This document shows, piece by piece, positions 48,450-49,793 of a stretch of DNA of 64,000 nt. The translations under genes were made by a program, and so were the position numbers. The notes under the pieces were generated by a model, which saw only the letters and a list, made by a program, of their open reading frames with translations, was not told the origin of the DNA and did not search any database. Source of the DNA: Escherichia coli (lineage in GTDB: Bacteria; Pseudomonadota; Gammaproteobacteria; Enterobacterales; Enterobacteriaceae); NCBI RefSeq assembly GCF_050320075.1, contig NZ_CP190018.1; one strand, given 5' to 3'. Position 1 is the first letter of the stretch. The number at the start of each line of letters is the position of its first letter.

Positions 48450-49793
48450 ATGCACAACTCCAAAATCCGGCTGGCTATACTGGTTGGCTGCATGGCTCTG
48501 AGCGCCAACCTGTGGGCCAAAGCGCAGCCGGTGCAGGCAACGCTGGCCGGGCATGCAATTCTGCCGGCAAAATCCGCTGTTTCAACACCGAAGGATGCGC
48601 CGGGCGATTTGCAACAGAGCGGCAAATACACCAGCGGCAAACGCGTCACCGAGCTGGGCAGCGTGGCGGGCAAATCCGCAGAACGCCTGACAGGACTCAG
48701 CCTGCCGATCAATGGTCAGCCGTTGCAGGGCCACTCAGGTATCAAACACATGCCCGACGGTACCTATTGGGTGCTGACTGACAATGGCTTCGGCAGCAAA
48801 GCCAACTCCCCGGATGCCATGCTGTACCTCAACCAATACAAGATAGATTTCAAAGACGGCTCGGTAGTACCGCTGAAGACGCTGTTCCTGCATGATCCGG
48901 ATAAAAAGGTGCCGTTCCACATCATCAACGAGAGCACCGAACTACGCTATCTGACCGGCAGCGATTTTGATCCGGAAAGCTTCCAGTTTTCCGACGATGC
49001 CTTATGGATCGGTGATGAGTTCGGTCCTTACCTGATCAAGACCGACCTGAACGGCAAGGTGCTGGCGGTGTTCGACACAGAAGTGGACGGTAAGGTGGTT
49101 AAATCGCCGGACAACCCGACGCTGACTCTACCTAGCGCTCCGGACGGTAAGCTGAACTTCCAGGTGGCGCGTTCCAAAGGCTTTGAAGGCATGGCCATCT
49201 CGCCGGACGGCAGTAAGCTGTATCCGCTGCTGGAAGGGGCATTGTGGGACGGTGAGCAGTTCGAGAACGTTGACGGAAAACGCTACCTGCGTGTGCTGGA
49301 GTTCGATACCAAACAGCAGGCCTGGACTGGTCGCAGCTGGCAGTACGTGCTGGAAGACAACCAGAACGCCATCGGCGACTTCAATATGATAGATGATACC
49401 CACGGACTGGTGATCGAGCGTGATAACGGCGAAGGCACGGCGGATAAAGCCTGCGTCGCCGGCGCGCCGACCAACAACTGCTTCAGTCAAGTAGCCAGGT
49501 TCAAACGGGTGTATAAAATTGCTTTCTCGGACACTAACGTCGGAAAACCTGTCGAAAAACTGGGCTATATTGACCTGATGAAGATTCAGGATCCGAACAA
49601 GCTGGCACGCAAGCCGCTGAACGACGGTGTGCTGACCTTCCCGTTCTTCACCATCGAGAACGTGGATGTGGTTGACACTAACCACATCATCGTAGGCAAC
49701 GATAATAACTTCCCGTTTTCCTCCAGCCGCTGGCCTAATATGGCGGATGACAACGAGTTTATTCTACTGGATGTGAAGGATTTTCTGAAGTAG
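48450..49793 (+). CDS. Secreted phytase-like (esterase-like/beta-propeller) family protein
   Basis: 447 aa; signal peptide (MHNSKIRLAILVGCMALSANLWA); family assignment by sequence impression only. Confidence 0.5.
   Translation: MHNSKIRLAILVGCMALSANLWAKAQPVQATLAGHAILPAKSAVSTPKDAPGDLQQSGKYTSGKRVTELGSVAGKSAERLTGLSLPINGQPLQGHSGIKHMPDGTYWVLTDNGFGSKANSPDAMLYLNQYKIDFKDGSVVPLKTLFLHDPDKKVPFHIINESTELRYLTGSDFDPESFQFSDDALWIGDEFGPYLIKTDLNGKVLAVFDTEVDGKVVKSPDNPTLTLPSAPDGKLNFQVARSKGFEGMAISPDGSKLYPLLEGALWDGEQFENVDGKRYLRVLEFDTKQQAWTGRSWQYVLEDNQNAIGDFNMIDDTHGLVIERDNGEGTADKACVAGAPTNNCFSQVARFKRVYKIAFSDTNVGKPVEKLGYIDLMKIQDPNKLARKPLNDGVLTFPFFTIENVDVVDTNHIIVGNDNNFPFSSSRWPNMADDNEFILLDVKDFLK

Follow-up and report, generated by a model that had tools for sequence, protein, structure and literature searches.

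The locus and its exported product

The window analysed here was a stretch of 64,000 nucleotides (nt) from contig NZ_CP190018.1 of an Escherichia coli genome (assembly GCF_050320075.1). Its sequence was identical to positions 4407570-4471569 on the chromosome of E. coli YZLc1-3, an isolate from chicken. Its subject is a "phytase-like" gene that lies in an insertion sequence (IS)-riddled part of the window, downstream of an orphan second copy of ugpB. The program-made list of open reading frames (ORFs) gave this gene at 48450..49793 (+), with an ATG start and a product of 447 amino acids. The gene and its immediate signals were as follows:

48436..48441 (+), Shine-Dalgarno sequence AAGGAG of the phytase-like gene, 8 nt 5' of the ATG
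48450..49793 (+), coding sequence of the exported PF13449 "phytase-like" beta-propeller, RefSeq WP_029397907.1, equal to orf34 of the SRL pathogenicity island (PAI)
48450..48524 (+), Sec-type signal peptide, residues 1-25, with cleavage predicted between AKA and Q, or between LWA and K at residue 23

An earlier note on this DNA had placed the product in the phytase-like esterase family and had named a Pfam search as the check. That search, run here, bore out the assignment: the only match of the protein was PF13449 (Phytase-like, "esterase-like activity of phytase"; E=1.8e-61, 209 bits against a cut-off of 27.6), with profile positions 1-284 of 284 aligned to residues 90-421. At E<=0.01 no other Pfam family was matched, phytase families included, and the NCBIfam search returned no model for the protein. 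The signal peptide claimed in the same note was likewise upheld. The N-terminus, MHNSKIRLAILVGCMALSANLWAKA followed by Q, is built like a Sec signal peptide, with a positively charged region, a hydrophobic one and one that bears AxA, as called by hand from hydropathy and motifs, and signal peptides were near-universal across 56 homologues. Two other routes of export were considered and rejected. The string LVGC (residues 11-14) might be read as a lipoprotein signal, but the homologues do not conserve its Cys14, which is part of the hydrophobic core; export by the Tat system would call for a twin-arginine, which is absent. Because LVGC is not conserved and no twin-arginine is present, the product is predicted to be a soluble exported protein. 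The gene is intact, with no internal stops, and is under purifying selection, the ratio of nonsynonymous to synonymous substitution rates (dN/dS) being 0.05-0.17 against four orthologues.

Predicted phosphate control

The region 5' of the gene contained two features that together resemble a PhoB-activated promoter:

48369..48386 (+), Pho-box-like 18-mer TCATAATATTTCTGTCAT, with a perfect 3' half-site (CTGTCAT) and a degenerate, weak 5' half-site
48397..48402 (+), -10 hexamer TACAAT, exactly 10 bp 3' of the Pho box, with no -35 consensus

A scan for sigma-70 -35/-10 pairs upstream of the gene gave no consensus promoter. In PhoB-activated promoters, for example that of phoA, a Pho box takes the place of the -35 element and stands 10 bp before the -10 hexamer. 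When scored with a working position weight matrix (PWM) based on known Pho boxes of E. coli, TCATAATATTTCTGTCAT ranked 21 of about 128,000 window positions, a rank that is only suggestive when taken alone. The comparison with orthologues carries the argument. When six orthologue upstream regions (from E. coli, Salmonella, Serratia, Providencia and a metagenome) were aligned, only the block ATATTT-CTGTCAT-N10-TAnnnT was conserved, the TAnnnT being present in 6/6, and the remainder was unalignable. The Pho-box-like site was found at -81 in the window gene and in the Serratia and Yersinia orthologues alike. The strict pattern GTCAY-N6-GTCAY occurred no more than 150 nt upstream in 22 of 76 non-redundant orthologue loci, compared to 0.08 expected from the same loci, and all of these matches fell 59-95 nt 5' of the ATG. 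Looser criteria gave the same picture, with 56 of 77 orthologues scoring at least 11/14 over the two half-sites (2.6 expected) and 33 of 77 scoring at least 12/14 (0.46 expected).

We regard this comparative promoter evidence as decisive for a predicted Pho control of the phytase-like gene, which is well supported computationally. Conservation of the Pho-box block across the orthologues indicates that the orthogroup is, by prediction, a member of the Pho regulon across alpha-, beta- and gammaproteobacteria, and that the E. coli copy keeps the site. The Pho control suggested in the earlier note thus gained a concrete candidate, the predicted Pho box and -10 at 48369-48402 being conserved in orthologues. 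A modest use of the present work is a clean computational case for membership of the orthogroup in the Pho regulon of many Proteobacteria. A published statement that cites Wosten 2006 describes Cj0728-Cj0734 of Campylobacter jejuni as phosphate-regulated (PMC1892558); the C. jejuni homologue may be Cj0728 or another member of the Cj0728-Cj0734 block.

Elsewhere in the window, PWM scores equal to or above that of the ugpB box described below were returned at 12684 (+), 29464 (-) and 55886 (+). They may have arisen by chance or be inert sites within genes; at least the one at 12684 lies inside a coding region (mtnK).

The orphan ugpB

Upstream of the phytase-like gene, the window contained a second ugpB and a decayed IS:

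45488..45540 (+), Pho boxes of the ugp promoter kept 5' of the orphan ugpB, best site CTGTCATCTTTCTAACAC at 45499, aligning with the native ugp promoter
45639..46955 (+), orphan second ugpB copy, NCBIfam UgpB equivalog NF008211, 932 bits (cut-off 411)
47090..48091 (+), IS110-family transposase pseudogene (frameshift and internal stop) between ugpB and the phytase-like gene, from the RefSeq annotation

The position of ugpB given in the earlier note, about 1.5 kb upstream, was confirmed by the equivalog match and by the distance of 1494 nt from the ugpB stop to the start of the phytase-like gene. Homology to the native ugp locus (93% DNA identity) spanned 45478-47010, the Pho-box promoter included, and stopped there, with ugpAECQ absent downstream. 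The site CTGTCATCTTTCTAACAC scored 15.2 and ranked 4 of about 128,000 window positions. Over 438 positions, the island UgpB and the native protein differed at 13 (97.0% protein identity), and both genes were present in about 200 of the 5426 complete genomes of E. coli.

The pairing of the two genes under Pho control, which the earlier note had proposed, stood in one part and fell in another. Predicted Pho boxes were found at both genes. The two genes, each with its own predicted promoter, shared neither an operon nor conserved synteny: the IS110 pseudogene lies between them, and a tblastn search with UgpB of about 80 orthologue loci with their 8-kb flanks returned no homologue. The Serratia fonticola, Providencia, Salmonella-plasmid and metagenome contexts of orthologues were also without ugp genes. 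The flanking ORFs of 76 orthologue loci were clustered in search of a conserved neighbourhood, and no neighbour recurred in more than 9 of the 76. Because orthologue loci lacked ugp neighbours and no neighbour exceeded that count, the phytase-like gene is, judged by this comparison, normally monocistronic, and its adjacency to ugpB is a by-product of IS-mediated mosaicism.

The IS110 remnant belongs to the "RNA-guided" type of transposase. A scan of 44.5-51.3 kb with Rfam, the decayed IS110 included, found no RNA family, and a repeat scan gave nothing meaningful.

Distribution, origin and mobility

The phytase-like gene is accessory in E. coli: it was present in 228 of 5426 complete genomes, in 224 of these at >=99% identity. 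Such accessory status fits the earlier remark that the gene is not known at this position in K-12. The exact protein was found on at least 1000 public contigs, where it was annotated under the phytase-like family name, and the gene was catalogued two decades ago as orf34 of the SRL PAI, so it is already known as a sequence. In the SRL PAI of Shigella flexneri, orf34 has been listed as 99.78% identical to such a phytase-like protein, and it was originally described merely as "putative periplasmic protein (C. jejuni), 52%" (PMC6980539). We found no functional study of orf34 in the literature. The orf34 of S. flexneri YSH6000 is essentially the same gene and is likewise IS-adjacent in a CP4-like integrative island; however, it is followed by IS66, whereas the window gene lies in the yjh/KpLE2 region, in another island and at another integration site.

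The nearest chromosomal relatives pointed to Serratia, as given by protein comparison (S. bockelmannii 93%, S. plymuthica 88%, Yersinia 81-82%) and by the 90%-identity cluster of the protein, which was mostly of the S. marcescens complex. At the DNA level, the homology was confined to the promoter and the gene:

48371..49793 (+), 90% DNA homology to the S. bockelmannii orthologue (blastn), from the Pho box through the stop codon

Orthologues in the S. marcescens complex, Yersinia and Providencia (93%, 82% and 71% protein identity) shared the length and signal peptide of the window protein, and carried the Pho-box/-10 block at an equal distance from the ATG. In contrast to the window gene, these orthologues are stand-alone chromosomal genes that are not IS-flanked and whose surroundings vary (after xylR in Serratia, after ybbP-like ABC genes in Providencia). 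Beyond these, the identity within the orthogroup was about 60-70% from Enterobacterales to Comamonadaceae, Bradyrhizobium and Pasteurellaceae.

The 3' side of the gene and its plasmid copies indicated how it has moved:

47722..49892 (+), IS1 composite-transposon-like module of the 3' IS110 remnant and the phytase-like gene, 99.5% identical to a plasmid segment
49893..50663 (-), IS1A, whose transposase coding sequence (49911-50608) starts 118 nt past the stop of the phytase-like gene; the junction is identical on plasmids

On plasmid pHNCF11W-130kb of E. fergusonii (locus L091, 5502-9216), the segment 47722-49892 lay between two IS1 copies, ugpB was absent, and the right-hand IS1 junction was that of the window. 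This bracketing by IS1 explains the spread of the gene to plasmids. A variant of 93% identity was carried by the E. coli IncF plasmid NZ_CP141865.1, which shared only 48356-49807 with the window. This is a conjugative plasmid that also carries astA, and plasmid-borne phosphate-scavenging genes are unusual in E. coli.

Phosphatase genes as recurrent neighbours

The only function-relevant neighbour to recur in the flank clustering was a PhoA-type phosphatase. Enzymes of this type (PF00245) stood beside the phytase-like gene in 7 loci, from Comamonadaceae, Cricetibacter and a metagenome-assembled genome (MAG) of Campylobacteraceae. In the last of these (locus L084, 442-5890), the PhoA-type phosphatase gene began 19 nt past the stop of the orthologue and was followed by genes for an ABC-ATPase and an FtsX-permease, a set that is probably an operon. 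The Providencia orthologues likewise stand just downstream of an ABC/FtsX pair. On the IncF plasmid NZ_CP141865.1, a phoX gene (PF05787, E=6e-167; locus L009, 9622-11601) was convergent with the 93% variant; apart from that PhoX, no homologue of UgpB or PhoX was found near the orthologues.

Predicted structure and conserved residues

The AlphaFold2 model of the protein, made from an alignment of 56 sequences, was all-beta, with a predicted local distance difference test (pLDDT) score of 95.2 and a predicted template modelling (pTM) score of 0.92. Its strand pattern would correspond to about five blades with an N-terminal extension, and in structure comparison its closest likeness was to propellers of five blades rather than to the phytase of Bacillus, which has six; glutaminyl cyclases and YjiK were the top structural neighbours. 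A Foldseek search of the PDB gave generic propellers only, at a template modelling (TM) score of about 0.3. By sequence or family profile, no relatives were found in the PDB, phytases included. The glutaminyl cyclases (3mbr and 3nok) and the C-terminal domain of E. coli YjiK (3qqz) were 10-12% identical to the window protein and covered about half of it, and their chemistry is unrelated or unknown, with no link to phosphate.

Eight residues (D111, D149, R166, D172, E323, D325, R427 and E436) were invariant in the 56 homologues, which extend down to 33% identity, and many further D, E and N residues were at least 90% conserved. This set of acidic and arginine residues is compatible with a metal-dependent phosphoesterase, although it is no proof of one. 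A search of the literature on PF13449 and phytase-like proteins found no enzymology.

Proposed role and alternative explanations

We consider it likely that the gene encodes a Sec-exported PF13449 propeller which, activated by PhoB under low phosphate, aids the release of phosphate from organic phosphoesters, and that it is of Serratia origin and independent of ugpB. Transcription would start from the gene's own promoter when phosphate is scarce, with PhoB as the presumed activator, and the beta-propeller, once periplasmic or secreted, would help to free phosphate from organic phosphoesters. The protein may be a metal-dependent hydrolase, probably with Ca2+ as the metal. Our best guess is a phosphodiesterase, the monoester products of which would be finished by phosphatases of the PhoA or PhoX type. 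The gene would work independently of the neighbouring orphan ugpB. As a cassette of promoter plus gene, it probably derives from the S. marcescens complex, and in Escherichia and Shigella it is carried by IS-rich islands (orf34 in the SRL PAI and the yjh/KpLE2-region island here) and by the IS1-flanked plasmid module.

Phytase-like-domain proteins of phototrophs provide a parallel to this proposed role. PtPhos2/HASP1 of Phaeodactylum tricornutum is secreted and strongly induced by phosphorus starvation, with a log2 fold change of 7.4 (PMC7283521, PMC6617621), and both NP_896855 of Synechococcus WH8102 (PMC4949707) and NSP_RS03145 of Nodularia (PMC9846622) are secreted and strongly induced by phosphorus limitation alongside alkaline phosphatases. 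The likeness lies in shared domain annotation, secretion and induction by phosphorus limitation rather than in an alignment to the window protein; these proteins are distant, often larger and multidomain, and their activity is putative.

A genuine phytase is one alternative. Pfam took the name of PF13449 from the Bacillus beta-propeller phytase (PhyC/TS-Phy, PDB 1poo), with which the window protein shares export, an all-beta propeller and many conserved acidic residues, and a genuine phytase could act in the gut on myo-inositol hexakisphosphate, for example feed-derived phytate in chickens, and free its phosphate. We judge this improbable, as PF13449 was the only Pfam family matched and no phytase family was among the matches. 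Moreover, 1poo is six-bladed, the window protein matched it no better than generic propellers, and its best matches were five-bladed. E. coli already has a phytase, AppA, and hydrolysis of phytate by a protein with PF13449 only was not found in the literature. A dedicated scavenging pair is a second alternative, in which glycerol 3-phosphate or glycerophosphodiester released by the phytase-like enzyme would be captured by the island UgpB for the native UgpAEC. Both genes have Pho-box promoters, 175 E. coli genomes have the two side by side, and docking on native UgpAE is plausible for an island UgpB that is 97% identical to the native protein. Some databases even name the orthologues "glycerophosphodiester phosphodiesterase" (GDPD), as they do GlpQ and UgpQ, the Pho- or glp-regulated feeders of Ugp and GlpT uptake. 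However, the GDPD domain (PF03009) was not found in the window protein by Pfam, and the folds differ, GDPD being a TIM barrel and the window protein a propeller. The dead IS110 separates the two genes, none of the roughly 80 orthologue loci had a UgpB homologue within 8 kb, and the homology to Serratia covered promoter and gene only. The plasmid copies between IS1 elements also lack ugpB, as does the 93% variant, and the spread of the two genes is unequal (228 genomes with the phytase-like gene, 200 with the island ugpB), so that a dedicated pair is, in our view, an unlikely arrangement.

A further explanation holds that the protein is not a phosphoesterase, and is instead an exported propeller of another kind (cyclase- or lactonase-like, a binding protein or a host-interaction factor) whose Pho regulation would belong to an envelope or stress response and not to phosphate scavenging. 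The top structural neighbours, the lack of enzymology for the family and the carriage of the gene on pathogenicity or fitness islands such as the SRL PAI (PMC6980539) are in keeping with it. We nevertheless think it very unlikely, given a Pho-box promoter conserved over alpha-, beta-, gamma- and some epsilonproteobacteria, phosphatase genes that recur as neighbours, and family members that are induced by phosphorus starvation and secreted with alkaline phosphatases in cyanobacteria and diatoms (PMC4949707, PMC7283521, PMC9846622).

The orthogroup could, as a tentative and somewhat doubtful extension, represent a widespread, uncharacterised class of PhoB-regulated, exported, five-bladed phosphoesterases, with a substrate perhaps outside those of PhoA, PhoX, PhoD and GlpQ. 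In that case the substrate might be a specific diester, such as the head groups of phospholipids, fragments of teichoic acid or extracellular nucleic acid, and a benefit from scavenging phosphate in the gut or host might have favoured the carriage of the gene by pathogenicity islands and IS1 modules in Escherichia and Shigella. The small mobile module, in a host as easy to work with as E. coli, is a convenient entry to the biochemical function of PF13449, a family that is also represented among the proteins which cyanobacteria and diatoms export under phosphate stress.

Other content of the window

The remaining features, from left to right, were as follows:

Left end of the window, first in gene order, yjhIHGFU, which are KpLE2-region genes of K-12
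After yjhIHGFU, IS66, mtnAK, McrBC and a type IIS restriction-modification system
After the restriction-modification system, CP4-like island genes (cbtA/yeeU, antirestriction and others)
IS-riddled stretch, in the order IS3 pseudogene, PemK fragment, ugpB, IS110 pseudogene, phytase-like gene, IS1A, AraC-type fragment
45283-45468 (-), short ORF of a PemK/MazF-family toxin, directly 5' of the ugpB promoter
50784-51203 (+), AraC-type helix-turn-helix fragment of 139 amino acids (PF12833), just beyond IS1
Right part of the window, malic enzyme, dcuC, rpiR-family regulator, aspartase-like gene, porin, another IS1 and an autotransporter

The defence cluster at 15532-23553, which precedes the CP4-like genes, set McrBC beside a type IIS enzyme of the Alw26I/Eco31I/Esp3I family and two methyltransferases. 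In comparison with the island of strain W2-5, the window was colinear only from 24995 onward. Within this otherwise colinear part, 58747-60165 (1.4 kb, comprising the end of the DUF4886 gene and a transposase fragment) was absent from W2-5, a difference which shows continuing IS-mediated variation of the island. The right part of the window included a C4-dicarboxylate module at 51320-59316, made up of genes for an NAD-malic enzyme, dcuC, a MurR/RpiR regulator, a member of the class-II fumarase/aspartase family, a porin and a DUF4886 protein, and reminiscent of the SRL PAI of Shigella, for which a DcuA/aspartate-racemase module has been described.
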